From contig NZ_AUUA01000004.1 of the NCBI RefSeq assembly GCF_000439085.1, forward strand, positions 180,773 to 244,772: 64,000 bases of DNA, written 5' to 3'. Origin of the DNA: Leminorella grimontii ATCC 33999 = DSM 5078. GTDB lineage: Bacteria; Pseudomonadota; Gammaproteobacteria; Enterobacterales; Enterobacteriaceae. Position 1 is the first letter of the stretch. Each line of letters starts with the position of its first letter. A program made the position numbers and the translations under genes. Below the pieces are notes generated by a model that worked only from the letters and a program-made list of their open reading frames with translations, searched no databases and was not told the DNA's origin. This document shows, piece after piece, positions 1-63,439 of this stretch.

Positions 1-1840
1 CGTCATCGTTTTGGTTGTCGTCGTAGCCGGAATGAGCGCGCTGGTTCTACTGGTCGATCCCAATGATTTTCGCAGCTACATGGTGAAAAAGGTTGAGGAC
101 AAGACGGGATACCACCTGAAGGTTGAAGGCGACCTTCGCTGGCACGTTTGGCCCCAACTCAGCATTTTGGCCGGACAGATGTCGTTGACCGCGCCGGGCG
201 CCGATTCACCGATTGTGAGCGCCGAGAATATGCGTCTGGACGTTGAGCTTATGCCGCTGTTTTCACATCAGCTGGTGGTAAAAAACGTCACGCTGAAAGG
301 CGGCGTTATTCAGCTTCTGCCGCAAACGCAGGCGCAGACGGCAGAAAGCGCGCCGATTGCGCCGCCGGATGCAACGCAGGGGAAGGGCGTACCGGAGAAC
401 GGCAGCGCAGGCTCTCGGTGGGCGTTAGAACTTAATCAGGTGAAAATCTCTGACAGCATTCTGGTTTGGCAGCGAAGCGAAAATGACACGGTGACCGTGC
501 GCGATATCAATATGACGCTGGAAAGAACCGATGACAGGGCCGCCGATCTTAACGTTAGCGCAAGGATTAATCGCGATCAGCGTGAGCTGGGTTTTTCTAT
601 GGACGGCGGTTTGAACCTTGTGGATTTCCCCCAGTCTTTAGCGGTGAATATCAGTAAGTTTGACTATCAGCTTCAGGGGGCGGGGATGCCCCAAAGCGGC
701 ATTAAGGGCGAAGGCGCTTTTGAGGCCGTTTATCAGCGTTCGCCTCAGTCCGTTCACATTGCGCCGCTATCGCTGACGGTAAACGACAGCCAGATTACGG
801 CAGACCTCTCGGCGACGTTGGGAGAGACGCCGCATTATGCGCTGAAGGCAAACTCGGAAAGTTTGGATCTGGATGCGCTATTTTCGAACTCATTGGATAA
901 TAACGGTGGATCGGCGGTAAAAAATGAGACGCCGCGCCCGGTAACTTCTTCGGCGAACGGGCTTTCTGATGCGCTTGATTTGAGCGTGTTGAAGAGTTTT
1001 GACGCCACGCTTGAGCTTTCCGTGGGTTCTTTGACCTATCATAAAATCCCCCTGAGCGGGGTAAGCCTGAAAGCGGTGAATAAAGACGGCGTATTGACGC
1101 TGGAAAACGCGACGGCGAAGGCTTTCAGCGGTGAGTTCGACGCCAAGGGCAGCGTTGACGGCACGAAGGCGCAGCCGACGATAGCCTTGGCCCCTCAGAT
1201 TAAGCACATTCAGCTGGGAGAGTTGCTGAAAACGCTGGGCTATCCGCAAACCATGACCGGGCAGTTGACGATGCAGGGAAACTTTAACAGCGTCGGCTCT
1301 GAGCTTACCAGCCTGGAGAACGGGTGGCGCGGAAGCGCCCATCTGGTGGTTGACGGAGCACGGCTGCACGGCCTGAACATTCAGCAGCTCATTCAGCAGG
1401 CCGTGACGAGAAGCAATAAGGACGTGAAGGGGATGGACAACTACGAGCGCTATACCGAGGTACAGCGGCTGGTTGTCGATACCGTGCTTAATCAGGGGCA
1501 GGTGAAAGTCACCCGCCTTAACGGTGCGTCTGAACTGTTAACCGTCGCCGGTACGGGAACGCTGACCCTGCCGAAGCAGTACTGCGACATGAACTTGAAT
1601 ATTCGAGTGACGAAAGGCTGGGGCGGCAAGTCGGAGGTTGTGAACATCCTGCAGAAGACCACAATCCCGCTTCGTATATACGGGCCGTGGAGCAAGCTTA
1701 GCTACCAGCTTAACGTCGATCAGATACTGCGAGACCAGTTAAAGAGTCAGCTTGGGCAAGCGCTCGACAAGTGGCTTGATAAGAACAAGGACAAGCAGGA
1801 AAGTAAAGACGCGAAAAAGCTGCTGGAAAAGCTCTTATAA
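1..1840 (+). CDS. asmA: outer membrane assembly protein AsmA (5' partial, N-terminus left of window)
   Basis: The ORF is open to the window edge. The sequence VVVVAGMSALVLLVDPNDFRSYMVKKVEDKTGYHLKVEGDLRWHVWPQLSILAG aligns to E. coli AsmA from about residue 9. It has a lysine-rich C-terminus. yegH follows, as in E. coli. Confidence 0.85.
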   Translation, partial: VIVLVVVVAGMSALVLLVDPNDFRSYMVKKVEDKTGYHLKVEGDLRWHVWPQLSILAGQMSLTAPGADSPIVSAENMRLDVELMPLFSHQLVVKNVTLKGGVIQLLPQTQAQTAESAPIAPPDATQGKGVPENGSAGSRWALELNQVKISDSILVWQRSENDTVTVRDINMTLERTDDRAADLNVSARINRDQRELGFSMDGGLNLVDFPQSLAVNISKFDYQLQGAGMPQSGIKGEGAFEAVYQRSPQSVHIAPLSLTVNDSQITADLSATLGETPHYALKANSESLDLDALFSNSLDNNGGSAVKNETPRPVTSSANGLSDALDLSVLKSFDATLELSVGSLTYHKIPLSGVSLKAVNKDGVLTLENATAKAFSGEFDAKGSVDGTKAQPTIALAPQIKHIQLGELLKTLGYPQTMTGQLTMQGNFNSVGSELTSLENGWRGSAHLVVDGARLHGLNIQQLIQQAVTRSNKDVKGMDNYERYTEVQRLVVDTVLNQGQVKVTRLNGASELLTVAGTGTLTLPKQYCDMNLNIRVTKGWGGKSEVVNILQKTTIPLRIYGPWSKLSYQLNVDQILRDQLKSQLGQALDKWLDKNKDKQESKDAKKLLEKLL

Positions 1841-5797: not shown

Positions 5798-7258
5798 TTA
5801 ATGGGTTCGGATATATTCATCCATATCGCTTTTCAGGTTGTCAGACTTGGTGCCAAAGATGGCCTGAACGCCAGAGCCTGCAACGACAACGCCGGCCGCG
5901 CCCAGCTTCTTCAGCCCGTCCTTGTCGACTTTTTCTATATCAGCGACGCCGATGCGTAAACGGGTGATACAGGCGTCCAGATTCGTGATGTTGTCTTTCC
6001 CTCCAAACGCTGCAACCAGCGCGGCAGCCATGTCTGAACTTGAAGCGGCTACGCTTTTTTCCGTCGTTTCCACTTCTCTTCCCGGCGTTTTCAGGTTCAG
6101 CTTAACGATGGCGAAGCGGAATACGACGTAGTAGAACAGCGCGTAAAGCGGGCCGAGGATGAAGAACATCCAGCCTTTGGTGGAAAGGTGGTAAAGCAGC
6201 ATAAAGTCGATGGCGCCGTGAGAGAACGTCATGCCGTGCTTCACACCCAGCAGTATGGTTATTACATAGGCAAGCCCGGCCAGGATGGCGTGGATTGCGT
6301 ACAGCACGGGCGCAACGAACAGGAAGGCAAATTCGATAGGCTCAGTAATACCGGTTAAGAAGGAGGTCAGCGCGGCAGAGATCATGATGCCGCCTATTTT
6401 TGCGCGGTTCTCTGGGCGAGCGGTGTGCCACATGGCGATGGCGGCAGCGGGAAGTCCCCACATTTTAAACAGATATCCGCCTGCCATGTTTCCAGCCGTC
6501 GGATCGCCCTGGAGGTAGCGTTGAATTTCACCGGTGATCCAACGTCCGCCTTCTGCCGTACAGGCGGCTTCGTTAGCGATACCGGAGACAATCTTACCGT
6601 TTACGATACAGGCCTGACCCGCTTCATAGAAGAAGGGGACGTTCCATATGTGGTGTAAGCCGAAGGGAATTAACGAACGTTCCACTACGCCGTAAATACC
6701 AAAGGCTAACGCCGGGTTTTGGTAAGCGGCCCACTGGGAGAAGGCGTTAATAGCGCCGCCGACCGGAGGCCAAATAAATGAAAGAACGATGCCCAGTGCG
6801 ATACAGGTAAAGCCGGTAATGATAGGCACGAAGCGCTTGCCGGCGAAGAAGCCGAGGTAGTCCGGCAATTGAATGCGGTAGAAGCGGTTAAACAGATAAC
6901 CCGCCAGGCCGCCGACCAGAATACCGCCCAACACTCCGGTATCTATTTTGGGAACGCCCAGCGCTTCCGCCATAACTTTAAGCGTGGCCGCCATAATGCC
7001 GTAGCCAACGATAGAGGCCAGGCCGGCGACACCGTCGTTGTTGGTGAAGCCCAGCGCGACGCCGACGGCGAACAGCAGGGGCATTTGGTCAAAAATGGAG
7101 CCGCCTGCCTGAGCCATAACTTTTGATACGACGGCGGGAAGCCAGCTAAATTCCGCGCTGCCGACGCCGAGCAGGATACCGGCGATGGGCAACACAGAGA
7201 CCGGAAGCATCAACGCTTTACCGACCTTTTGTAGACTTGCAAAGAGATTTTTGAACAT
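5798..7258 (-). CDS. ptsG: PTS glucose-specific EIICB component (PtsG-type)
   Basis: [35 protein letters not shown] is near-identical to the E. coli PtsG N-terminus. Collinear through the EIIB domain ([10 protein letters not shown]...[13 protein letters not shown]). Start is the ATG at 7258. The 23-codon upstream extension in the ORF track is rejected. Confidence 0.9.
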
Positions 7259-7349
7259 AAATGTGCCTTTGATGACGATGTTATATAAGTAGAAAAATAA
7301 CCTTTCTATGCATAGATGATTCGGAATCAATTAATAAAATTTTTTATAA

Positions 7350-7365
7350 AGTGATGACGATCACG
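7350..7365. promoter_or_regulatory. putative CRP binding site in ptsG promoter region
   Basis: aGTGAtgacgaTCACg matches TGTGA-N6-TCACA with one mismatch per half-site. It lies about 95 bp upstream of the ptsG start codon. E. coli ptsG is CRP-activated. Confidence 0.4.
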
Positions 7366-7683
7366 GCATTAAAATGAAGCAATAATTATAAGTATTAGAT
7401 CTCTTTTTTGTTGTCCTCGTTTAAGTACTTCCTTTATAAAGCTAATTATTTTAAATAAGTATAGTTGCCTTTTTTATCATTGCTAAAAAAGTCGATGTAA
7501 AAAATGATCCACTATCGATGAATTTTGTTTCTATTTATTAAAATCAATATGTTATGTTTTTTCTCGTTAGACGGTTCAATAGAGGTAAAATGGTTTTTCG
7601 CTCCTGCAATAATGTAAGCGTGGGGGAAGTTGTTGTTTATTTTACTATCTTATTTTTTTGTGTTTTTAATATAAAAAGAGTAT

Positions 7684-8178
7684 TGACAAACTTTAATAAA
7701 GAGCTAAATTTATAAACAACGCAGGCGCTATTAGCCTAACGGTTAAATAAAACGTTTGCGTTGTGAATGCGCGATAAAGGCCTTGTAGTTAACCAATGTT
7801 AATTGTGAAAGAGGATGCGGGCATCGTTCAACTGTAGTCACGTTTGGGAACCGCATCGGAAGTCGGGTCGCGTAGTTGAAGTACGATCGCGCTGCTGGGA
7901 ACGAAAGGGGGATACGCGGGTTTGTATCAACCGTTGTATCAAGTGATGTTGTGAGACGGCTAAACATGATGAATATGCCGCTCGACCTGTTTAGATGTGA
8001 AGAAAAAAGGCGTTTTGGTTAATAAATCGGAGGGTTTTTTACTACAACAGCTTAATTTCTCGCTTACAAAACAAGTGCATCTAACTGCTACTGTTTTAGT
8101 CCACTAACTTAATACATGTTTAACTTATTATCGGTTCGACCTTAAAGCCCTGGCGCAACGTCAGGGCTTTTTGGTTTT
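7684..8178 (+). ncRNA. candidate small RNA / structured leader ending in intrinsic terminator upstream of fetA
   Basis: Sigma70-like -35 ttgaca at 7684 with a -10-like taaatt 17 bp downstream. GC-richer segment 7790-8040 has several complementary stretches, for example gatgcgg/ccgcatc. No ORF of 60 aa or more on this strand. Terminator at 8143-8178: stem agccctg / cagggct, then TTTTTggTTTT. Confidence 0.35.
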
Positions 8179-9777: not shown

Positions 9778-9895
9778 AAATGGAGAATCTTTACCGGAAA
9801 ATGCTTCTGGCCTGCTCACTGTGAAGAGTTAGCCTTGAAGTGGCGAGCTATTCTGCCGAGCCTTTTTGTTAAATAGCCTTTTAAAGGCGGTTTTT

Positions 9896-12583
9896 TTATT
9901 CCACGTTAGCGACATTTTCCTGCATGACTGAAGTGAGAAACGTTGCGATTTTATTCTCAATCTGACTATCGATCGTTCTTAGCCGCAGTAGGCTAATACC
10001 GCATTCGTCGAGAATAGCATTTTTTAGCGCGTCGCGTTCGCGCTGCGCTGGGCAGTCATGATGTCCGCCATCTATTTCAATCACCGCTAAAGGTTGCTTT
10101 CCTACACGATAGTAAAAAACAAAATCGCAGCTTGCTCCTTGTACCATAAACTCTCGCTGACGTAGCGTAAAACGATCGTCCATACGAGAGACCAGCTGTC
10201 TGAGTGGGATCTGTGCGTGTACAGTAAGGACGCGGTAAGTCGGCAGCCTGAGCGTATCGTTGATGAGCTGCGAAGCAATCTGTTCTGAGCGAAAGCGTGA
10301 GTCGTTGGGATTAAGTCGTTTTTTCAGTTTATCTAATGAGCGGTCATACTCTTCATAGAGCAGGTCGAATGCGCTGACTACTGGGCTATAATGTACCCGA
10401 TCGTTATCAGCGTAGTAGGTCATATAGCGAATTAGCGCAGCGATATGCTGATTGTTATTAGTGAATACATTATCACCGGTAACCAGCGTGAAGCGTTTTT
10501 GCGCACGTGAAACCGCGACATTGATAAGCTGCGGATCGTCAACAAAGTTAAGCGCCTGCCGATCTGCTTTCTTATCCAGTACGGTGGAAAAAATAATCTC
10601 TTCGCATTCGCGTCCCTGAAACTTATGCACCGTAGCGCTAATAAAATCAGTGGGAAGCGCTTGGTTTGAGAGGTCGACCTGAGCATTGTATGGCGCAATA
10701 AAACCGCGGCTATCTGCTTCGTCCCATTCTAGTGCCGTAAGCGACTCTAGTTCGCGTAAATTGCTTCTGTTACGCGTATGATTACCTTTAGCGGTCACTA
10801 CCAGCGATAGGGCTGATTCGCCGTTGTCACGGGTCATTGCGATTAACTGATTGTCATAAAATTGCTTATTGCAGAACTGAATTATTTTTGGATGACAACG
10901 ATAGTGCTCTTTCAACAAAGTGACGGGCAGCGAGTTGCCGTATAGCTTGAATAGTGAATCCAGCAGGCTGTGGCTGACACAGTCATAATGCGGCGCCGGT
11001 GCAAGCAAAGTGGTATTTTCTGGAACATGAGGAAGTTGCTTACGGTCGCCCACTACAATGACGTTTCTGGCGCAGCCTAAGGCTAAAATTCCCGGAACAA
11101 TATCTTGCTGCGATGCCTCATCAATAATGACGTAATCCAATAAAGCCCCTGGAGCCAGAGAATTAATGATGGAGTGTGTGCTACTACCAATTATCGGATA
11201 GCGTTTTAGAAAATTAGTAAAAACCTTCTGATAATTTCCCTCATTGAGGTTGTCATCTGGTGTGATTGATTTCCAAAGATGTGCGCGAAGAAACGCCATG
11301 GAATCCTGTGTCAGTTTTTGTTGCAAACTTATCACATCATTATTTTTTAAAGTTTTTTCGTTTTTTATCAGCGCATTTCTGGCCTGTTGTAAACGGATAG
11401 CATAATAATGACGCTGTAAGGCAAAGAATATCGACTGGCGTTTCTCCATAGTATTTAAAGGTTTCGTTCTCACAATGCTAAATTTGAACAGGAGTATTAG
11501 CCTATTGAGAAAGCTAATACGATTTTCTTTTAGAGACTGGAGAAAGGCCATCAAGTCAGTAATTTTATGCTGCGTCAGCTGATAGCGCTCAATTTTATGA
11601 TGATGTGTAATGTCGTGAGAATGTAGCCATTGGCTAAGATATTTTTCTTCGATGCTCAGTTCATCAATTTCAGCACGTAGCTTTGCTACGTCATTTTGTG
11701 CAAGGAGAAATTCTTTTAACCGCATTACTTGATTAGATATAACGCCGATTTCAGGTGCATTCGTTGGCGGTATTTTGGGGAGCTCGGGCTGAGTGGCGAA
11801 AAATTTGAGGCGATTATCCGCACTACCTAATCGAGCTACTACATAATCCAGATTTGCTTTTGCCAGTTTATCGTAAACATTCTCTACGGCAGTGTTGTTA
11901 TTAGAGACGATTGCGACACTGCAATTCTTGATCAGGATATTGGCGAGGATATTAAGTATCGTCTGGGTTTTTCCTGTACCAGGAGGTCCTTCTATAACTG
12001 AAATTTGTGCGCTAAATGCTTTCTCAACAGCCGTCATTTGGCTTTCATTCAGTCCGAAGGGATAGATAATGTTGTTCGGTATGCGTCGTGTTGCATTCTT
12101 ACTGTGGCAATAAGCTTCTAATGCCGTGTCGGGATGAGCCACAATTTTATCTAACTGATTCAGTATATTCTCTGCGATAGGCTTCTTGTCCTGAGTCGCG
12201 TTATGGACACGCTGTCTGGCAACGTCGCGGAAATAGGAAAAAACGTCATCATCTTTTAACGATGTTGCCGGCAGAATTTGCACGTCTTCAGCTTTCATCA
12301 CATAACATCGTTCCGAGTTTGGATAATAAATAAGAGCATATTTATTACCTACTATTTCGGCGCGAGCGATGGCTCGCACATTAGAGTGGCCTTTTTTGAT
12401 GAGTAAAGTGCCATTGACAAGCGTAGTGGGTTCGACCTTGCAGGCGCTGAACGGCCAAGTATAAGTTTTTCCTGAATGGAAATGACCAGTCAATTGAAGG
12501 CTCTTTGCGCTATTGCTGTAATACAGAGTCCAGTCAGAAAATTGCGCAGTTCTGTCTTGCCCTTCAACGTAAATAATGGTCAT
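9896..12583 (-). CDS. SF1 (DNA2/NAM7-like AAA_11/AAA_12) helicase fused to C-terminal DUF559/Vsr-like endonuclease domain; Hhe-like single-gene defense candidate
   Basis: 895 aa. Walker [11 protein letters not shown], motif II VIIDEASQ, motif VI TVHKFQGRECEEIIFS. The C-terminal region FVFYYRVGKQPLAVIEIDGGHHDCPAQRERDALKNAILDECGISLLRL is the DUF559 (Vsr-fold) signature. The gene is markedly AT-rich relative to its neighbours. An RBS ggaga precedes the ATG at 12583. Confidence 0.8.
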   Translation of the reverse strand: MTIIYVEGQDRTAQFSDWTLYYSNSAKSLQLTGHFHSGKTYTWPFSACKVEPTTLVNGTLLIKKGHSNVRAIARAEIVGNKYALIYYPNSERCYVMKAEDVQILPATSLKDDDVFSYFRDVARQRVHNATQDKKPIAENILNQLDKIVAHPDTALEAYCHSKNATRRIPNNIIYPFGLNESQMTAVEKAFSAQISVIEGPPGTGKTQTILNILANILIKNCSVAIVSNNNTAVENVYDKLAKANLDYVVARLGSADNRLKFFATQPELPKIPPTNAPEIGVISNQVMRLKEFLLAQNDVAKLRAEIDELSIEEKYLSQWLHSHDITHHHKIERYQLTQHKITDLMAFLQSLKENRISFLNRLILLFKFSIVRTKPLNTMEKRQSIFFALQRHYYAIRLQQARNALIKNEKTLKNNDVISLQQKLTQDSMAFLRAHLWKSITPDDNLNEGNYQKVFTNFLKRYPIIGSSTHSIINSLAPGALLDYVIIDEASQQDIVPGILALGCARNVIVVGDRKQLPHVPENTTLLAPAPHYDCVSHSLLDSLFKLYGNSLPVTLLKEHYRCHPKIIQFCNKQFYDNQLIAMTRDNGESALSLVVTAKGNHTRNRSNLRELESLTALEWDEADSRGFIAPYNAQVDLSNQALPTDFISATVHKFQGRECEEIIFSTVLDKKADRQALNFVDDPQLINVAVSRAQKRFTLVTGDNVFTNNNQHIAALIRYMTYYADNDRVHYSPVVSAFDLLYEEYDRSLDKLKKRLNPNDSRFRSEQIASQLINDTLRLPTYRVLTVHAQIPLRQLVSRMDDRFTLRQREFMVQGASCDFVFYYRVGKQPLAVIEIDGGHHDCPAQRERDALKNAILDECGISLLRLRTIDSQIENKIATFLTSVMQENVANVE

Positions 12584-13297
12584 TTTCTCTTCTCCATGAG
12601 GAATGGGAATGTTCTTGTCTAACTTTGGAGATAATAAGGATAAAAGAAATTTCCCCTAACGGAAAAGAAAAAAGATTATTTTTTATGATTCGTTTTTACT
12701 AGCTGTATCAGATGTGTGTTTTATCTTATGGAATATAAATATATTAAATTCTAAAACTCTAAATAATATCTAAAATTATATGGATATTGTCGCCGTTTTT
12801 AAACATTTCGGGCTGTTGTACTGTCTGTAATGAAAAAAGGCCGTTGGCTTAATGCCTGATACGGGAATTGATATGTGAAGATGCAGCTAGTACAACCATT
12901 TATTATTTAATCATAGGATTAAAAATAGGTTGTTTTTAGACGATATCTAATCGATTTTATGAAAACGGTTTTTTCTTACTTATAGCATCTGATTATATGT
13001 CCGCCGAATATTATAATCTCTTAATTCGGCAATGTAGAAAGTAGTTCATTTCATTTTCATCAATAGCCCTGCTTGTACGTGTAGTCTCCCCAGTTTTTCG
13101 GTACAGGCCGTAAACAGTGGATGTTATGCCCGTCATTCACTGAAATACTTGAATGCGTCTTCAGATTTGTAGCTATGACGCATGAATCCCTCATTCCGCC
13201 GCTTCATAATCACATTTATAGCTTTACATCTATATAGTGTTTAACCTATATTTTCGGGGCCCGTGTGGACGATTAAAACAACGGATACGTTCGATCA

Positions 13298-13606
13298 TTG
13301 GTGACTGATATAGACAGAGCCTGCGTGCTTGCGGCGTTAATTGTACTGAAAGAGAAGGGGCCAATGTTGTCCAGACCTTACGCCGATACGGTTAAAGGCG
13401 CTCGCTACGGTAATATGAAAGAGCTACGGCTGCTGAGGCGGGGCGAACCAATTCGGGCATTTTTTGCCTTTGATCTTCATCGTATCGCCATTCTGCTTTG
13501 CGCTGATAATAAGGTCGGTAACGAGAAACGTTTTTATGATGAAATGATTTCGATAGCCGATCGGGAATTTATGAACTATCTGAATAAATTAGAAGAGAAG
13601 GAGTAA
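13298..13606 (+). pseudogene. higB: HigB/Gp49-family (RelE/ParE superfamily) toxin, apparently frameshifted at N-terminus
   Basis: The frame starting at 13298 gives ...PMLSRPYADTVKGARYGNMKELRLLRRGEPIRAFFAFDLHRIAILLCADNKVGNEKRFYDEM, typical of the Gp49/HigB-2 family. The expected family N-terminus (V)WTIKTTDTFDHW is encoded in a different frame (GTG at 13263). That frame hits TGA at 13302-13304, a 1-nt register shift. Confidence 0.6.
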
Positions 13607-13610
13607 CGCC

Positions 13611-13913
13611 ATGGGCAGAACGCTGGAACAGCTTCTCGCAGATGAAAAACCGAGCGTCGTGGCCGAAGCTCAGGCAATGGCTAAGGATATCCTGCTCAAT
13701 ATTCATCTTGCTGAACTGCGTGAGAGGGTGCAGAAAACCCAAGTGGAAATGGCACAGGAGCTGGGCATCAAGCAGCCTACCGTCGCGGGAATGGAAAAGC
13801 CGGGACGCGACCTGAAGCTTTCTACGCTTAAACGCTACGTTGAGGCAGCGGGCGGTAAGCTGCGGCTTGACGTTGAGCTGCCGGACGGGTCGCATTATGG
13901 ATTTGTTTTGTAA
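13611..13913 (+). CDS. higA: HigA-family HTH (XRE) antitoxin
   Basis: 100 aa. HTH QVEMAQELGIKQPTVAGME. Starts 4 nt after the toxin stop. Toxin-first order is typical of higBA. Confidence 0.8.
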   Translation: MGRTLEQLLADEKPSVVAEAQAMAKDILLNIHLAELRERVQKTQVEMAQELGIKQPTVAGMEKPGRDLKLSTLKRYVEAAGGKLRLDVELPDGSHYGFVL

Positions 13914-13990: not shown

Positions 13991-14250
13991 TCCGCAATAA
14001 TCCTTTTAACTGCAAAAACAGTTTTCTATCATCGACCTTCTTACCACGAACTAAGCTCTCGCCTGCACGAAATGCTTCATGGCCTGAAAGAAGCGCCTGA
14101 TGTATCAGGACGGTCACCGTTTTACCGGCAACGCCGCCTTTGAAAACTGCCGGATCTGTCCTCTGATGGATTAAGGCTTTCTTCACGCTTTATTGCGCTA
14201 AGGAAATCACAATGAATCTGATGAATAATTGTGCATCGCCCGCCGCAGAT

Positions 14251-14266
14251 GTTATATTAAAATATA
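14251..14266. promoter_or_regulatory. palindromic operator of chpSB-like TA operon
   Basis: Perfect inverted repeat ttatatt-aa-aatataa lies 18 bp upstream of the chpS-like ATG and overlaps the presumed -10. Confidence 0.5.
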
Positions 14267-14283
14267 ATATCCGGAGGTGCTCT

Positions 14284-14541
14284 ATGTATACCACTCGTCT
14301 GAAAAAGGTTGGCGGATCTGTCATGCTGGCGGTTCCTCCTGCCGTGCTGAAAACGCTGGGGCTGTCGACGGACAGCGAAGTGGGCATGACCATTGATAAT
14401 GGCTGCCTGATTATTGAACCTCAAAAACGTCCCCGCTATTCGCTCGAAGAACTGCTGGCGCAGTGCGATCCGCATGCTGAAATAAGCGAAGAGGGTCGGG
14501 AATGGATTGATGCGCCTGCGGTGGGCAAGGAGATCCTGTAA
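14284..14541 (+). CDS. chpS: ChpS/MazE/PemI-family antitoxin (AbrB/SpoVT fold)
   Basis: The 85-aa product MYTTRLKKVGGSVMLAVPPAVLKTLGL...RYSLEELLAQCDP closely parallels E. coli ChpS (ChpBI). Start is the ATG at 14284 after RBS ggaggtg. Confidence 0.85.
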   Translation: MYTTRLKKVGGSVMLAVPPAVLKTLGLSTDSEVGMTIDNGCLIIEPQKRPRYSLEELLAQCDPHAEISEEGREWIDAPAVGKEIL

Positions 14542-14874
14542 ATGGACAGAGGGGAAATCTGGCTCGTTTCACTGGATCCCACCAGCGGCCATGAACAAAG
14601 CGGAAAACGTCCGGTACTCATCGTGTCGAAGGCATCATTTAACACATTCACCCGGTTGCCCGTTGTTGTCCCTGTGACCAGCGGCGGAAACTTTGCTCGC
14701 GAAGCCGGTTTTATCGTCTCACTGGACGGCGCGGGAACAAAAACAACGGGCGTGATCCGCTGTGACCAGCCCAGAACCATTGATATGGGGGCCCGAAATG
14801 GTAAGCGACTGGAACGTATACCAGACGCTGTCGTGAATGAAGTGCTGGCCAGACTGGAAGCCATTCTGGGCTGA
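14542..14874 (+). CDS. chpB: ChpB/MazF/PemK-family endoribonuclease toxin
   Basis: 110 aa. RGEIWLVSLDPTSGHEQSGKRPVLIVS...GGNFAREAGF is collinear with E. coli ChpBK. The start abuts the antitoxin stop. Confidence 0.85.
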   Translation: MDRGEIWLVSLDPTSGHEQSGKRPVLIVSKASFNTFTRLPVVVPVTSGGNFAREAGFIVSLDGAGTKTTGVIRCDQPRTIDMGARNGKRLERIPDAVVNEVLARLEAILG

Positions 14875-14895: not shown

Positions 14896-14935
14896 ATTCT
14901 GAAAAGCAAAAAGCCTGCTACAAAGCAGGCTTTTC
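14896..14935. terminator. bidirectional terminator between chpB and tRNA-Asn
   Basis: agcctgct-acaa-agcaggct with A-run upstream and T-run downstream. Confidence 0.7.
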
Positions 14936-14941
14936 TGAATT

Positions 14942-15017
14942 TGGCTCCTCTGACTGGACTCGAACCAGTGACATACGGATTAACAGTCCGCCGTTCTACC
15001 GACTGAACTACAGAGGA
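14942..15017 (-). tRNA. asn tRNA: tRNA-Asn (anticodon GUU)
   Basis: The reverse complement reads TCCTCTGTAGTTCAGTCGGTAGAACGGCGGACTGTTAATCCGTATGTCACTGGTTCGAGTCCAGTCAGAGGAGCCA. This is identical to E. coli tRNA-Asn including the encoded CCA. Confidence 0.97.
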
Positions 15018-15355
15018 ATCGTATAGACAGGGCGCATCATATCCGCCAGCCCGGGCGCTGTCAACCGCTTGGAAACCTCGTTAAGCGCGTTTGCTTATAC
15101 TTCATCCAAAAAGGGCGCGATCCGTTTCTATTTTAGCCATTTTGATACTTTTTGGGCCTAATTTTATTTTTTCTACGCGGCTGGAAAAGCTACATATCTT
15201 TAGTCAGAAATATTCTCATACGGGTATAGCTATTGAAAAAAGTAATATAGACTTTAAGTCAAGGTGGCCGAGGCTGCAGAGAGTGGGTATTTAGCCATTG
15301 CTTTCAATTTCACTTTTCGCAGCGGCATAATATTTGATGGCTAAGTGGTGGGCGA

Positions 15356-17914: not shown

Positions 17915-17936
17915 GGCTTGTATTGCCTCTGATAAC

Positions 17937-17966
17937 GAAAAAGCCCGCTTTAAAAGCGGGCTTTTG
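17937..17966. terminator. bidirectional terminator between PDE gene and second tRNA-Asn
   Basis: aagcccgctt-taa-aagcgggctt flanked by A and T runs. Confidence 0.7.
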
Positions 17967-17971
17967 AAATT

Positions 17972-18047
17972 TGGCTCCTCTGACTGGACTTGAACCAGTG
18001 ACATACGGATTAACAGTCCGCCGTTCTACCGACTGAACTACAGAGGA
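17972..18047 (-). tRNA. asn tRNA: tRNA-Asn (anticodon GUU), second copy
   Basis: Same sequence as copy 1 except one T-loop change (GGTTCAAGTCC vs GGTTCGAGTCC). About 40 bp of 5' flank is shared (gcgcatcatatccg...ctgtcaac). Confidence 0.95.
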
Positions 18048-18717
18048 ATTACTTGAACGCCGCGCATCATATCCGGCTGTGCTCACCCTGTCAACGCTAA
18101 ATTTTTATCTTTTATCTAAGTGCTCATCAACTGAGCAAGCCGAACGTTGTTTGAGCAAGGATAGGGGGCATGGATATGCCGATGGTACGAATGGTAAAAG
18201 TGGCGGTAATAGACGGATGAGGGCGAGTGTATAAATAATAGTCGATAGAACGCGAGTTTGCTTTAAATTAAGATGTACGTTTCTTTACTCGAACAGCCAT
18301 CTATTTCATAAGGTGATTTTCACTAATCGAGAAGATGGAGAAAAAAGCATCAATACCAATAACGAAAAGCTCCATCTACCAACTTTTCGTTATTGAACTG
18401 TAATATTTATATTCTATTAATATTAATAATTAGGGGGTGTTGAAAATAAGGTGCTACGTCAGAAGATCTTTTTATACGGAATTGATTTTTTAACCTTAAA
18501 AGACGTTACTTTTACTTTCTATATATTTTGGCCGTTGGCAGCTAACAAAACACCCGACCTGAGGAAGGCACAATGTAAGTATTACTGAACCATCAGAGTA
18601 GGCAATTCTCTGGCTTGCTAATTAACAGGCACAGACAAACCGCAACGGCGTTCCGTTAGTCAACTAACTCAAACAGCAGGTGAACCCTAGCTTAATCAAC
18701 GCTCTTGAAGCGTCGAA

Positions 18718-18930
18718 TTATTTCACTTGGTACCAAATAGACTTTGGAACTTTGCCCAAATCAAAAAGCTTACCAGCAACCAGCTCTGCACGACGGTGAT
18801 CGGCAGCGCGATACATATTAGCCAAAATACTATTATCAGACAAAGAATAGTTTAGCTTATCGTAAAGACGCTCTAAGCTATCTTCGTTAGAACACTTACG
18901 AAACATCATTAAATAATCAATATCACTCAT
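18718..18930 (-). CDS. hypothetical small protein (70 aa), orphan ORF in AT-rich region
   Basis: Only ORF in the 1.1-kb AT-rich stretch. Reasonable composition but no recognisable family. Lies about 200 bp downstream of the ADH gene on the same strand. Confidence 0.25.
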
Positions 18931-19128
18931 TATAGGCTACTTTATATTTAGCTCTGCGTGCGTAAATACGTGCATTGATTAATGCATCTCTAATGTCATA
19001 CAACGCGCAGAGGTAATGGATTGAGAGTAATCAGCGACGGCATTAAAGTAAATGCCATCTCTGATATCATAGTCCGTTGGTAGAAAATGAACAAGCACTT
19101 ATAGCGTTATTATTGCAATAATATGCAG

Positions 19129-20283
19129 TTAGTAGCTTAAGCTCAAAATTCTACGGGCTTCAATTTCTGTGATGTCCTTATGCTCCCCAAGAGGAAATAA
19201 GTTAAATCTTTTTAAATAGTTAATTGCATCATCAATGGATGATTCCGGTATCCCATACGCTCTCAGACTGGTCATTATTCCCATATTTTCAAAAAAACGC
19301 TTGGTTAGAGATATCGCACTATTTATCCGTTCGTCTTCATTGCCGTCCGTTAATCCCCAAACTCTGTCTGCGTATTGTAATAGTTTCAATCGCTTGTTTT
19401 TTCTTTGTACTTCCAAAACGGAAGGCAGTATTACTGCAAGGGTTTGAGCGTGGTCAAGGCCGTGATATACCGTAAAATAATAGCCCATCCGATGAGTAGC
19501 CCAGTCCTGAGGAACGCCCAGACCAATCAGGCCGTTAAGCGCCTGTGTCGCACTCCACATAATGGAGGCTCTGACGTCGTAGTTCTGTCGGTCAGCCAGC
19601 GCCTTAGGGCCTTCTTCGATCAGCGTCAGCATTAATCCTTCCGCATAGCGGTCTTGCACTTTTCCGTAAACCGGGTAGGTAAGGTATTGCTCGGTAACGT
19701 GTACGAAGGCGTCGACAACACCGTTAGCAATCTGTTTTTCCGGCAGAGTGTAGCTTTTTTTCGGGTCGAGAAGGGCAAAGCGAGGGAAAAGCAGAGGATG
19801 CTTATGGCTTAGCTTGGCGTTAAGGTCTGAACGGCTTATAACCGCAGTGCCGTTCGTTTCAGAACCGGTTGCGGGGAGCGTTACTACACAGCCAATGGGA
19901 AGCGTCTGCTTTAAAGGGACGTTTTTTGTCCAGCTGTCCCATGCGTCGCCTTCAAAGTAACGAGCGGCGGCAATAAATTTTGTCCCATCAATAACGGAAC
20001 CTCCGCCGACGGCGAGAAGAAAATCGATTTTTTCTTCTTTTGCGATGCTTACGGCTTTCATCAACGTATCGTATTGGGGATTTGGCTCTATCCCGCCAAA
20101 TTCAATGTACTGTCTTGCGCCTAACGCGTGTTTTACCTCATCAAGCGTGCCGAATCGTTTCGCGCTCCCGCCTCCGTAGGTTATCAATACTTTGGCGTCC
20201 GCAGGGATTTGAGCGTCAATGTCCTTAATTCGCCCTTCACCAAAAAGGATCCGCGTTGGATTGTAGTAATCAAAGTTAAACAT
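19129..20283 (-). CDS. yqhD: iron-containing (group III) alcohol dehydrogenase / NADPH aldehyde reductase, YqhD-like
   Basis: 384 aa. ARVLITYGGGS..EFGGIEPNP..LLAVGGGSV.DGTKFIAAA and GVPQDWATH...HGLDHAQTLA are collinear with E. coli YqhD. RBS ggaga before ATG 20283. Confidence 0.85.
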   Translation of the reverse strand: MFNFDYYNPTRILFGEGRIKDIDAQIPADAKVLITYGGGSAKRFGTLDEVKHALGARQYIEFGGIEPNPQYDTLMKAVSIAKEEKIDFLLAVGGGSVIDGTKFIAAARYFEGDAWDSWTKNVPLKQTLPIGCVVTLPATGSETNGTAVISRSDLNAKLSHKHPLLFPRFALLDPKKSYTLPEKQIANGVVDAFVHVTEQYLTYPVYGKVQDRYAEGLMLTLIEEGPKALADRQNYDVRASIMWSATQALNGLIGLGVPQDWATHRMGYYFTVYHGLDHAQTLAVILPSVLEVQRKNKRLKLLQYADRVWGLTDGNEDERINSAISLTKRFFENMGIMTSLRAYGIPESSIDDAINYLKRFNLFPLGEHKDITEIEARRILSLSY

Positions 20284-58991: not shown

Positions 58992-60314
<1,323 letters not shown>

Positions 60315-60339
60315 CTGATATTCCATTTCGGGTAAATAG

Positions 60340-60382
60340 ACAGCGCCCGGTAAGCGAAAATTCCGCTTATCGGGCGTTTTTT
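60340..60382 (+). terminator. intrinsic terminator after serS
   Basis: cgcccggtaagcg...cgcttatcgggcg followed by TTTTTTATT. Confidence 0.7.
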
Positions 60383-61000
60383 ATTGTTTATACCAATGGA
60401 ATGCGACAACATTTTTCACTGTTATTACTCCTTTTAAAAATCTTTCCTTAATTTATTAAAATGAAACGTAACAAATTGGCCTTTGTTTGCGATTCCTTAT
60501 CTCCACTGCGTTAAGAATGTATGCGTTCGTTTTCTTAAAATAACGAATCGGGTTTATATTATTTGGTAATGATTATTGTTAACAATAATAAAGTGGTGAA
60601 AATGAAACAATTTATTGATTTAAATATAAAAAATAGAGGTTTATTTTATTTAAGCAGGCCATATTTCTTAACCTTTCTTTAAATAGCATTTTTTTGACTA
60701 AACGCAAGTTCCTTTTTAACCCTAAAGTAGTATAAAAAGTCAGGCAGGGATAAAAAGTATGATGGATATATTACTCCTTCCAAAAATAAATATTTCCTTA
60801 GCTGTTAGCCTTTATCGGTTGGATATTCCACAACGTTGAATATTCCTTTCTTATTACCGATCGTTTCGGAAAGCAGTAGTTTAACCCGGTGACGTTTTAT
60901 CGCGGTATTCACATTTTCGGCGCTATTTCCCGTAAGCAAAGAAAAACACTGTGAAAAAACGGCCTGATATCTAGTTCAACAATAAGAAAGCAGGTGAGTT

Positions 61001-63439
61001 ATGAGCCTTGACGAAAAGAAAAACGACGGCGTACTGCAGGTCAGTCGGCGCCAGTTGGTGCAAACCGGCGCTATCGGCGGTTTGGCGCTGGCAGCCGGCG
61101 GCGTTTCGTTGCCGTTTGGAACGGCAAAAGCGGAAGGCGGTCCCGTTCAAAGCGGAGCTGCCGATGAAAAAGTGGTCTGGAGCGCCTGTACCGTCAACTG
61201 CGGCAGCCGCTGTCCGCTACGCATGCACGTGGTGAACGGCGAAATCAAGTATGTCGAGACGGACAATACCGGCAATGACGACTATGCCGACAATCAGGTG
61301 CGCGCCTGCCTACGCGGGCGTTCGATGCGTCGTCGCGTATACAATCCGGATCGATTGAAGTATCCGATGAAGCGCGTAGGCAAAAGAGGTGAAGGCAAAT
61401 TCAAGCGTATTACGTGGGAAGAAGCCTATGATGAAATCGCCAATAGCCTTAAGCGCATTATTAAAGACTATGGCAATGAGGCCGTTTACCTGCAGTATGC
61501 GACCGGAACGTTAGGCGGGACGGTGACTCGCTCCTGGCCGCCGGGAACCTCCCTGATTGCTCGCCTGATGAACTGCTGCGGCGGCTACTTAAACCACTAC
61601 AATACCTACAGCACGGCGCAAATTACCACCGGGCTAAGCTATACCTACGGTAGCGGAGCGGGCAACAGCTTTTCCGATATTGAAAACACCAAGCTGGTGG
61701 TGATGTTCGGCAATAACCCGGCTGAAACCCGCATGAGCGGCGGCGGCATGACGTACCTGTTGGAGCAGGCGCGAGAACGCTCCAACGCCAGAATGATTGT
61801 TATCGACCCGCGCTATTGCGATACCGCCGCAGGTCGGGAAGACGTGTGGATCCCGATTACGCCGGGCACTGACGCTGCGCTGGTCGCCGGCATTGCCTAT
61901 GTGCTGATTACGGAAAATCTGGTCGACCAGGCCTTTCTGGACAAGTACTGCGTGGGTTATGACGAGAAAACGCTGCCGGCTTCCGCGCCGCGCAACGGAC
62001 ACTATAAGGCCTATATTCTGGGCGAAGGCGCCGACGGCATCGCTAAAACGCCACAGTGGGCGGAAAAAATCACCGCCGTTCCCGCCGATAGCATTATCAA
62101 GCTGGCGCGCGAAATCGGCAGCGCCAAGCCTGCGTTTATCTGTCAGGGATGGGGGCCGCAGCGCCACGCTAACGGGGAAATGACGGCGCGGGCGATCGCG
62201 ACGCTGGCCTGTCTGACCGGCAACGTCGGCATCAATGGCGGCAACAGTGGCGCTCAGGGCGGCACCTACGCCATTCCGTTCGTTCGTTTCCCTACGCTGG
62301 AAAACCCGATTAAGGACAGCATCTCTTTCTTCTTATGGACTGACGCCATTCTGCGCGGCCCGGAAATGACCGCTACCCATGACGGCGTGCGCAACACCGA
62401 AAGGTTGAAACAGCCGATTAAGTTCATCTGGAACTACGCCGGCAACAGCATCATCAACCAGCATTCAGATATCAATAAAACGCTTAAGATCCTGGAAGAT
62501 GACACCAAGTGCGAAATGATTGTGGTCATTGACAACCACATGACCGCCAGCGCCCGCTGTGCCGATATTCTACTGCCGGACTTGACTACCTCGGAGCAGA
62601 TGGATTTCTGTATGGACGCCACTTCCGGCAACATGGGATATGTGATTTTTGCCGACCAGGCGATTAAACCGCAGTTTGAGTGCCGCTCCATCTATGAGAT
62701 GACCTCTGAAATTGCTAAACGAATGGGCGTCGAGCAGAAGTTTACCGAAGGGCGTACTCAGGAAGAGTGGCTGCGTCACCTTTATCAGTTAACGCGGGAT
62801 AAAGATCCTCAGCTTCCGACCTTTGAAGAGTTTCGTCAAATGGGGATCGTCAAGCGTAAAGATCCAGCCGGGCATTTTGTTGCCTATAAGGCGTTTCGTG
62901 ACGATCCGCAGGCTAATCCGCTTCCCACGCCGTCGGGTAAAATTGAGATTTACTCCGAACGGCTGGCCGATATTGCCAAGAGCTGGCAACTGCCGGAAGG
63001 GGACGTCGTCGATCCGCTGCCGATTCAGGTCTCCACTTTCGAAGGCTTTGATTCTCCTCTGCGTAAGAAATATCCGCTGCAGCTAATTGGCTTCCACTAC
63101 AAGGCGCGCTGTCATTCTACCTACGGTAATGTTGACGTCCTTAAGGCTGCGGCCCGTCAGGAAGTGTGGGTGAATCCGATGGATGCCCAGCAGCGCGGTA
63201 TTAAAAACGGTGACGTTATTCGCATTTTTAACGATCGCGGTGAAGTTCATATTGAGGCCAAAGTGACCCCTCGCATGATGCCTGGCGTTGTGGCGCTGGG
63301 GGAAGGCGCGTGGTTCTCGCCGGATGAAAAGGGCGTCGACCACGGGGGTTGTATCAACGTGCTGACTACGCAGCGCCCATCGCCTCTGGCGAAAGGCAAC
63401 CCGCAGCACACCAATCTGGTTGAAGTTGCAAAGGTTTAA
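61001..63439 (+). CDS. dmsA: anaerobic DMSO reductase catalytic subunit DmsA (molybdopterin)
   Basis: Tat signal SRRQLVQTGAIGGLALAAG. 4Fe-4S CTVNCGSRCP. 812 aa collinear with E. coli DmsA. The 680-bp AT-rich upstream region is typical of the dmsA promoter. Confidence 0.95.
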   Translation: MSLDEKKNDGVLQVSRRQLVQTGAIGGLALAAGGVSLPFGTAKAEGGPVQSGAADEKVVWSACTVNCGSRCPLRMHVVNGEIKYVETDNTGNDDYADNQVRACLRGRSMRRRVYNPDRLKYPMKRVGKRGEGKFKRITWEEAYDEIANSLKRIIKDYGNEAVYLQYATGTLGGTVTRSWPPGTSLIARLMNCCGGYLNHYNTYSTAQITTGLSYTYGSGAGNSFSDIENTKLVVMFGNNPAETRMSGGGMTYLLEQARERSNARMIVIDPRYCDTAAGREDVWIPITPGTDAALVAGIAYVLITENLVDQAFLDKYCVGYDEKTLPASAPRNGHYKAYILGEGADGIAKTPQWAEKITAVPADSIIKLAREIGSAKPAFICQGWGPQRHANGEMTARAIATLACLTGNVGINGGNSGAQGGTYAIPFVRFPTLENPIKDSISFFLWTDAILRGPEMTATHDGVRNTERLKQPIKFIWNYAGNSIINQHSDINKTLKILEDDTKCEMIVVIDNHMTASARCADILLPDLTTSEQMDFCMDATSGNMGYVIFADQAIKPQFECRSIYEMTSEIAKRMGVEQKFTEGRTQEEWLRHLYQLTRDKDPQLPTFEEFRQMGIVKRKDPAGHFVAYKAFRDDPQANPLPTPSGKIEIYSERLADIAKSWQLPEGDVVDPLPIQVSTFEGFDSPLRKKYPLQLIGFHYKARCHSTYGNVDVLKAAARQEVWVNPMDAQQRGIKNGDVIRIFNDRGEVHIEAKVTPRMMPGVVALGEGAWFSPDEKGVDHGGCINVLTTQRPSPLAKGNPQHTNLVEVAKV

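Follow-up and report, generated by a model that had tools for sequence, protein, structure and literature searches.

The stretch of Leminorella grimontii ATCC 33999 = DSM 5078 analysed here (64,000 nucleotides, contig NZ_AUUA01000004.1, positions 180,773 to 244,772; hereafter the window) carries, between fetB and a tRNA-Asn gene, a single gene for a protein of 895 amino acids (aa) in which a superfamily 1 (SF1) helicase is fused to a nuclease. We state with high confidence that the protein has the architecture described below, that it is not the anti-phage system Hhe, and that it is the product of a solitary accessory gene. With less assurance, we consider it on balance probable that this stand-alone helicase-nuclease, horizontally mobile and belonging to a family that has no name, acts as a single-protein defence against phages or plasmids. 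If so, a compact system of 0.9 kaa would join the known repertoire, one that is already present, under uninformative annotation, in about 12% of complete Escherichia coli genomes and in hundreds of species, and that would offer a simple single-protein entry to the biochemistry of bacterial Upf1-like helicases, whose roles in CoCoNuT CnuH and Mokosh are largely predicted. The family is widespread, unnamed and easily tested; single-gene helicase-nuclease candidates as a kind are already known, and it is not categorically new.

Domain architecture and predicted activities

Four parts make up the protein: an N-terminal all-beta domain, a helicase core of superfamily 1B (SF1B) resembling Upf1 and IGHMBP2, a long helical segment inserted after Walker A, and, at the C-terminus, a PD-(D/E)XK nuclease (Table 1). 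Read from the N-terminus, the order is a private double small-beta-barrel domain, a helical stalk, the SF1B core with its insertion, a helical linker and a DUF2726 nuclease. The preliminary description of this DNA had already placed the gene for an 895-aa product at 9896..12583, where the list of open reading frames (ORFs) has it on the minus strand, and had read it as a single-gene fusion of an SF1 helicase of DNA2/NAM7 type with a Vsr-fold nuclease. The fusion stands, as does the helicase type (Pfam AAA_11 at 2e-21 and AAA_12 at 6e-24), and translation recovers every motif then quoted, namely GPPGTGKT (residues 199-206), DEASQ (488-492), TVHKFQGRE (651-659), AVIEIDGGHHD and RERDALKN. A deposited protein that is 100% identical carries the annotation 'helicase [Leminorella grimontii]'.

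The helicase core belongs to the Upf1-like clade of SF1B. As expected of such an enzyme, both AAA_11 and AAA_12 score over threshold, motifs I, II and VI are conserved, and the structure is like those of UPF1 and IGHMBP2. Sequence comparison with the PDB places it nearest to the solved structures of IGHMBP2, UPF1/NAM7, SEN1/SETX and DNA2. An AlphaFold (AF2) model of the full protein, built on 51 homologs with a mean predicted local distance difference test score (pLDDT) of 83, was compared with solved structures by Foldseek and matched IGHMBP2 at 4.6e-20 (SETX and UPF1 likewise at about 1e-20) with a probability of 1.0, followed by Aquarius, DNA2, ZNFX1 and coronavirus nsp13. All characterised Upf1-like SF1B members move 5'->3' on single-stranded RNA or DNA. 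The insertion is modelled as helices at residues 279-322, 379-413 and 417-439, with pLDDT values of about 83-92.

The nuclease domain, which had been assigned to DUF559, is indeed a Vsr-like PD-(D/E)XK domain, but its best family is DUF2726 (50-54 bits) and DUF559 (PF04480) is only marginal; when the C-terminus is scanned alone, DUF2726 scores 54 bits, DUF559 23.7 and MTES_1575 22.6, the last of these under its threshold. DUF2726, DUF559 and Vsr are sister PD-(D/E)XK families that have been grouped together (PMC3424549), and DUF2726 has been described as a DNase of the restriction endonuclease fold fused to defence-type domains (PMC3710099). A sequence profile of the nuclease domain detected no solved structure in the PDB. 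The catalytic-type residues (D820, E836, D838, H842, Q847, D851 and K854) are invariant in the 51 homologs, together with Walker A, DEASQQD, QGRE and R850, and the nuclease core D...E-x-D-G...Q...D...K holds across the Proteobacteria and also persists in relatives from Firmicutes and Actinobacteria that share 28-40% identity. Since the catalytic residues of both helicase and nuclease are invariant, both predicted activities, ATPase/helicase and nuclease, are very likely intact as judged from the sequence.

The N-terminus had been described as lacking a recognisable domain and as a possible sensor, and Pfam indeed matches nothing within the first ~172 aa, even at E<=10. Residues 1-105 are nevertheless modelled as a well-defined fold, with pLDDT values of about 90-95 both within the whole protein and when modelled alone, and are followed by the stalk, three helices within residues 113-160; the alignment to the IGHMBP2-family model TIGR00376 starts at residue 105. 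The N-terminal domain has no convincing structural relative, and among the viral structures of BFVD it has no match at E<=1e-3. A profile of the domain searched against 1.84 billion representative proteins found 67 proteins; the ten or so that are full-size (846-923 aa) have the same architecture, and most of the others are shorter and apparently truncated. The domain is thus private to this helicase-nuclease family and is no sensor module that has been passed around among different effectors. Small barrels of such a kind often bind nucleic acids, which by analogy is only a hint that those of the present protein may do so.

Among the PADLOC and NCBIfam models the best matches are helicases of defence systems and cover the core only: MkoA/MkoC of Mokosh (1e-44), PDC-S37 (4e-36), ProA, PLuB and Hhe. 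No NCBIfam model reaches its cutoff, and PADLOC v2 and NCBIfam contain no model that covers the protein. The preliminary description had called the protein Hhe-like, with the architecture reported for that system, and an assignment to Hhe has to be abandoned. With the curated NCBIfam equivalog model NF042953 (Hhe_antiphage) the protein scores 74 bits (4.6e-21), where 2000 are needed, and aligns over two short helicase stretches of the 1797 positions, the best being residues 468-583 against profile positions 1267-1384; the PADLOC Hhe model (PDLC02194, 1911 positions) gives 65 bits and 5e-19, again over two short stretches with the best at residues 179-260. DUF4011 has no Pfam match at E<=0.1 in the 895-aa protein, which is half the length of Hhe. 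The Mokosh models outscore those of Hhe, and the Hhe match therefore reflects only shared Upf1-like helicase motifs. Mokosh itself was rejected as an assignment: only the helicase core aligns (residues 175-727 against 615-1103 of the 1112 positions of MkoA), and Pfam finds no PLD domain in the protein or in the adjacent genes.

Distribution and genomic neighbourhoods of the family

The 120 closest database proteins, at 53-77% identity, come from many Gamma-, Beta- and Alphaproteobacteria and are 888-911 aa long, except for two that are truncated (753 and 711 aa). When one genome per species is scanned, relatives are found in at least 581 species genomes, and the family measures about 890-920 aa. 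Relatives in Enterococcus and Erysipelotrichaceae have the full N-terminal domain; those in Clostridia, Paenibacillus and Actinobacteria are 31-39% identical and some of them have another N-terminus. A megablast search of E. coli genomes with the Leminorella gene gave no match, and the E. coli ortholog was recovered by tblastn on plasmids and then by a DNA search of genomes. It is 54% identical, occurs in 648 of 5,426 complete genomes (12%), is always annotated 'AAA domain-containing protein', and lies within islands rich in IS1 and IS66; in O157:H7 strains it appears split into an 'AAA domain-containing protein' and a 'hypothetical protein'. At the E. coli loci (L100:12001-17038 and L101:12001-17037) an ibrA-like gene for a PAPS-reductase-like protein always lies about 500 bp downstream, along with a gene for an IbrB-like ParB-domain protein.

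No full-length relative occurs in the collection of sequenced phages, where the gene is therefore not carried as prophage cargo; plasmid records with a relative number just 19, mostly megaplasmids or chromids. The chromosomal insertion site changes from genus to genus: the surroundings of the gene in Cedecea, Citrobacter, Pseudomonas, Salmonella, Burkholderia, Kosakonia, Rahnella and E. coli are mutually unrelated, and at six of these eight loci the GC content of the gene is below that of its flanks, clearly so (by 6-12 points) at four. Clustering of the ORFs at 80 species loci yielded no conserved partner: the most frequent neighbour family occurs at 12 loci at most, and none is adjacent. Taken together, the unrelated neighbourhoods, the lack of a partner and the low GC content indicate that the gene behaves as a solitary, horizontally moving accessory module.

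Two of these loci merit separate mention. In Salmonella Newport (L014:144-1970 and 6654-7922) a NERD-UvrD-type helicase is encoded 6 kb away from the homolog, which comes directly after a 422-aa LAGLIDADG_3 protein and has an IS66 TnpB downstream, and the whole looks like a small variable or defence-type cluster. In Burkholderia ambifaria (L015:253-5580) it lies between two 2'-5' RNA ligase (LigT) genes with an RNase T-like gene, RNA-repair-flavoured surroundings that were not seen at the other loci.

Composition and strain variation of the locus

The AT-richness of the helicase gene is genuine but moderate. Its GC content is 43.8%, compared with 50.1% for fetAB and 52.1% for the window, or about 1.9 standard deviations under the window mean; same-sized windows that are equally GC-poor make up 4%, and all of them overlap either the helicase gene or a second AT-rich patch at ~17.7-18.3 kb. 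The interval 10.5-13.7 kb is the strongest tetranucleotide outlier of the window. GC and tetranucleotide content agree with the preliminary description that the gene is AT-rich, although 'much more AT-rich' overstates the magnitude.

Assemblies of L. grimontii were gathered by an exact look-up of FetB, and most are collinear with the window. Two of them, L001 and L006, lack a segment of 3,922 bp that holds the helicase gene, the spacer upstream of it, a toxin gene of Gp49 type and codons 1-49 of a helix-turn-helix (HTH) antitoxin gene. The right breakpoint falls after antitoxin codon 49, and the 3' part of that gene remains in both strains. The truncated antitoxin gene left behind marks the difference as a deletion in L001 and L006, and the arrangement with the helicase gene as the older.

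In L001 (GCA_024342105.1, 12057-19872) an island of ~7.8 kb carrying a Thoeris system is situated between mazF and tRNA-Asn, and contains ThsB-TIR, ThsA-Macro, a 410-aa protein, HTH genes, fragments of integrases and one intact tyrosine integrase. On either side stand direct repeats of the 21-mer AATTTGGCTCCTCTGACTGGA, the 3' end of tRNA-Asn; in the window strain this attachment site, at 14938-14958, is empty. At the fetB side there is no left-border attachment repeat, the 21-mer being found only at the two tRNA-Asn genes of the window, along with a site inside mazF that has four mismatches and resembles a chance occurrence.

These observations divide the earlier idea of a tRNA-Asn-linked island. 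The segment is strain-variable, atypical in composition and adjacent to a tRNA gene, but it has neither an integrase (none is found from fetB to tRNA-Asn, 9.7-15.0 kb, as had been noted before) nor a flanking repeat, and the difference between strains is a deletion rather than a clean insertion. Universal presence together with host-like composition, which had been named as speaking against acquisition, is not what we find, the gene being absent from L001 and L006 and a compositional outlier. The region from fetB to tRNA-Asn is a variable, defence-accepting hotspot, and the helicase segment is not a bounded integrative island.

Proposed function and alternatives

Were the protein a defence system, its helicase would load on single-stranded nucleic acid exposed by the replication or recombination of a foreign element (most likely single-stranded DNA, possibly RNA), would translocate 5'->3' driven by ATP as characterised Upf1-like SF1B enzymes do, and the tethered Vsr-like nuclease would nick or cut the tracked or displaced strand. 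RNA seems a less likely substrate than DNA. Recognition of the substrate or trigger, or autoinhibition, might be the task of the N-terminal domain and of the coiled-coil insertion, analogous to the helicase-gated nucleases HamAB, Nhi and Hhe; in Hachiman HamAB the nuclease is first kept in check by the helicase and later set free.

In favour of a defence role stand the architecture with its conserved catalytic residues, the matches of the core to helicases of defence systems, the mobile and accessory character of the gene, the Thoeris island at this locus in a sister strain, the analogies with Hhe, CnuH-Vsr fusions and HamAB, and a signal among the neighbouring genes. A set of nearest neighbours was assembled from 64 dereplicated loci, comprising 118 proteins of at least 150 aa, which match 157 Pfam families, each in three members at most. 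About 10-15% of them match PADLOC families at E<=1e-15, as estimated from per-family counts, and the defence families represented include PDC-S34, MADS mad2/mad3, AbiEii, a type IV restriction endonuclease, type II methyltransferases, ZorF and SoFic.

Several points weigh against a defence role. Most of the nearest neighbours are ordinary housekeeping genes, and the rate of 10-15% is suggestive but has no matched background. No defence-specific hidden Markov model in PADLOC or NCBIfam covers the protein, and its RefSeq label is only 'AAA domain-containing protein', and the defence role of the whole family is a prediction from sequence. Upf1-like helicase-nucleases also serve in replication and repair, as in the case of Dna2, so immunity does not follow from the domains by themselves; our statements on the substrate (DNA or RNA), on the trigger and on what the N-terminal domain does are inferences. 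Finally, identity is at least 53% across classes, unlike the rapid diversification often seen in defence sensors.

A bolder and more tentative version of the defence reading, which we would put forward as possible without expecting it, is that a solo CnuH-like Upf1-type helicase with a DUF2726 nuclease constitutes an unrecognised, widespread single-gene immune system, independent of Hhe and free of McrBC, whose N-terminal barrels would sense a phage nucleic-acid structure or protein, and which, as its Upf1 relatives do, might survey RNA or RNA-DNA intermediates rather than double-stranded DNA.

The main alternative to a defence role is an accessory enzyme of DNA metabolism, similar to Dna2 or RecD2, whose work would be the processing of ends, the restart of replication or recombination, for the maintenance of the mobile DNA itself, with no immune role. 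DUF2726 proteins also occur on plasmids beside topoisomerase-type functions, and the likeness to DNA2 and to RecD2/RecD models in Foldseek and sequence comparisons, the strong sequence conservation across bacterial classes and the preponderance of housekeeping neighbours are consistent with such an enzyme. Yet the gene is patchy and strain-variable, is deleted without obvious replacement, has an atypical composition, is solitary at many different loci, and resides in a hotspot where a sister strain has Thoeris; its near-complete absence from sequenced phages and its presence in just 19 plasmid records argue against mobile-element maintenance. We hold this alternative to be unlikely.

It is more improbable still that the gene is an orphan or satellite CnuH-like component of a system of CoCoNuT type (Type IV restriction, related to McrBC), a helicase-Vsr fusion similar to Type III-B that has unlinked McrBC-like partners or is a remnant, in which case it might target RNA, as CoCoNuTs are predicted to do. 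Three features are common to it and the CnuH of Type III-B (the helicase type, the insertion and the fused nuclease), but neither McrB/CnuB, McrC/CnuC, CnuA nor CnuD is adjacent to it in the window, no such partners appear in the eight other genera or among the recurrent neighbours at 64-80 loci, and its N-terminus is all-beta, whereas a Sul7s-like winged HTH is reported for Type III-B.

We give very little credence to a selfish nuclease-type element, homing-endonuclease-like or an addiction module, that would persist independently of any benefit to the host. DUF559/Vsr-like domains do include homing endonucleases (PMC3424549), and the gene adjoins toxin-antitoxin (TA) addiction modules and forms a solitary insertion between core genes; against this, flanking repeats, an intein or intron context and target duplication are not seen at its borders, the gene is large with all helicase motifs under strong purifying selection, and the adjacent TA modules are not conserved partners. 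The least credible alternative, that the protein is an Hhe of reduced length and so belongs to this single-gene anti-phage system, has in its favour the same list of parts (an SF1 helicase and a C-terminal Vsr-like nuclease) and the weak matches to the PADLOC and NCBIfam models, but as family membership it is already refuted by the profile comparisons given above, in which Mokosh and PDC-S37 helicase models score much higher, and by a nuclease of DUF2726 rather than DUF559/Vsr type.

The region from fetB to tRNA-Asn

After fetA-fetB comes the helicase gene, in opposite orientation, then an AT-rich spacer of 714 bp, a higBA-like module, mazEF and tRNA-Asn (Table 1). The preliminary description had the helicase gene embedded between two TA modules and the 3' end of tRNA-Asn; the two modules and tRNA-Asn are present, but both modules are on the same side of the gene. 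The spacer matches no Rfam family and holds no ORF of at least 50 aa, its promoter-like sites, found on both strands, are not above chance, and homologs in other genera are not preceded by a conserved counterpart of it. The higBA-like module (13298..13913) is absent beside homologs elsewhere and is thus a neighbour, not a conserved partner, and mazEF is retained in strains without the helicase gene, according to the gene calls of L001-L005.

Table 1. Features of the helicase-nuclease gene and its surroundings, in window coordinates
Feature	Residues	Coordinates	Strand	Basis and remarks
Helicase-nuclease fusion gene, whole ORF including stop codon	895 aa	9896..12583	-	ORF list
N-terminal all-beta domain, 12 strands resembling tandem small beta-barrels	1-105	12269..12583	-	AF2
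Helical linker ('stalk') between N-terminal domain and RecA1	113-160	12104..12247	-	AF2 secondary structure
SF1B Upf1-like helicase core	176-727	10403..12058	-	Pfam, PDB sequence matches, Foldseek
AAA_11	178-518			Pfam E 2e-21, 77 bits (threshold 27)
Walker A, GPPGTGKT		11966-11989	-	coordinates by translation
Large helical (coiled-coil-like) insertion after Walker A/motif Ia	279-440	11264..11749	-	AF2
Motif II, DEASQQD		11102-11122	-	coordinates by translation
AAA_12	538-701			Pfam E 6e-24, 85 bits (threshold 27)
Motif VI, KFQGREC		10604-10624	-	coordinates by translation
C-terminal DUF2726/Vsr-like nuclease domain	786-880	9944..10228	-	PF10881, 54 bits
DUF2726 (PF10881)	787-880			50 bits with whole protein (gathering threshold 24.7)
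DUF559 (PF04480)	829-883			20.4 bits with whole protein (threshold 20.6)
Segment absent in L. grimontii L001 and L006, 3,922 bp		9836..13757	.	blastn breakpoints, junction sequences
AT-rich divergent intergenic region, 34% GC		12584..13297	.	presumed promoters of helicase gene and higBA-like operon
Gp49/HigB-like toxin		13298-13606	+	Pfam Gp49, 2e-15
HTH-XRE antitoxin		13611-13913	+	Pfam HTH_3, 3e-6
MazE-like antitoxin		14212..14874 (module); likely start 14284	+	Pfam
MazF/PemK toxin		14542-14874	+	Pfam
tRNA-Asn(GTT)		14938..15017	-	ARAGORN, Rfam; also given as 14942-15017

The toxin gene of the higBA-like module may be damaged. Within 13263-13606 a short frame opens with GTG at 13263, encodes VWTIKTTDTFDHW* and ends at 13302-13304; from 13298 the ORF that matches Pfam continues in another frame. 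The protein is called as 80 aa, as 93 aa or not at all in different assemblies. Stitching the two frames together brings no gain in Pfam score, which leaves a frameshift unproven.

Elsewhere in the window, the two tRNA-Asn genes lie in duplicated segments of ~150 bp that are 87% identical (17928-18075 and 14898-15045). The second copy is followed by a stretch of 37-39% GC (AT-rich at 18000-19250) with a gene of the Hha family (L002 19758-19970), and this stretch may be another small acquired segment. An intergenic stretch of 27% GC at 7250-7750, between a ptsG-like phosphotransferase-system gene and fetA, contains no ORF with a family assignment, and a patch of 39-41% GC at 60000-60750, immediately upstream of tRNA-Pro at 61082-61165, may be a tRNA-linked acquired segment.

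Comparison with known systems

The literature that we consulted (DUF2726 with helicase, AAA_11/AAA_12 with anti-phage, DefensePredictor, and domain-centric discovery), a library that is not exhaustive, contains no account of this family as a defence system, and the nearest described systems each share with it a part of its architecture.

Hhe is reportedly the single-gene system of Gao et al. 2020. HheA resembles the protein described here in being one polypeptide that joins an SF1 helicase to a C-terminal Vsr-like PD-(D/E)XK nuclease with acidic catalytic residues; such a nuclease is common to several other families and not specific to Hhe. Its nuclease residue E1731 is required for defence, and it is annotated 'DUF4011 domain-containing'. 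From the position of this active-site residue and from profile lengths, Hhe measures ~1,750-1,900 aa; it carries DUF4011, whereas the present protein has 895 aa and lacks that domain; the helicase motifs of Hhe are spread over a profile of ~1,800 positions, and the N-terminal domain and the DUF2726-type nuclease found here are different. Homology by architecture, in the sense that a helicase plus Vsr equals Hhe, mislabels this family.

The MkoA and MkoC helicases of Mokosh give the top-scoring defence models and have the Upf1-like helicase core in common with our protein, but Mokosh uses a nuclease of the PLD family (MkoB, or fused in MkoC) where the protein here carries DUF2726. Nhi of Staphylococcus is likewise a single-protein defence joining a nuclease to an SF1 helicase. 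The nuclease of Nhi is N-terminal, and the domain order is thus reversed, the nuclease here being C-terminal, and the N-terminal domain is unrelated. Nhi is said, in a summary of the work on it, to degrade phage-specific replication intermediates (PMC10734457). The PADLOC list gave no match to Nhi at E<=0.1, with the presence of an Nhi model in that PADLOC release unconfirmed.

Outside bacterial defence, IGHMBP2, UPF1, SEN1/SETX, DNA2 and nsp13 provide the closest solved structures of the helicase core, at 13-18% identity and with different accessory domains. Dna2 also couples a PD-(D/E)XK nuclease to a helicase of this type, but its nuclease is N-terminal and of RecB type. In comparison with these eukaryotic and viral Upf1-like helicases, the gene described here is bacterial, accessory and horizontally transferred.

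The closest described architecture, compared by description only, is that of the CnuH protein from CoCoNuTs of Type III-B (Bell et al., PMC10542128). CnuH is defined by a conserved operon with the GTPase CnuB/McrB and with CnuC/McrC (and CnuA and CnuD in Type III-B), and the function of CoCoNuTs is itself only predicted (PMC10542128). CnuH helicases have a large helical insertion after Walker A, and fusions of CnuH with Vsr have been reported in CoCoNuTs (PMC10542128). The protein of L. grimontii has the same three elements in a gene that stands by itself: an SF1 helicase of UPF1 type, a large insertion of helical or coiled-coil kind that follows Walker A, and, in direct fusion at the C-terminus, a Vsr-like nuclease.

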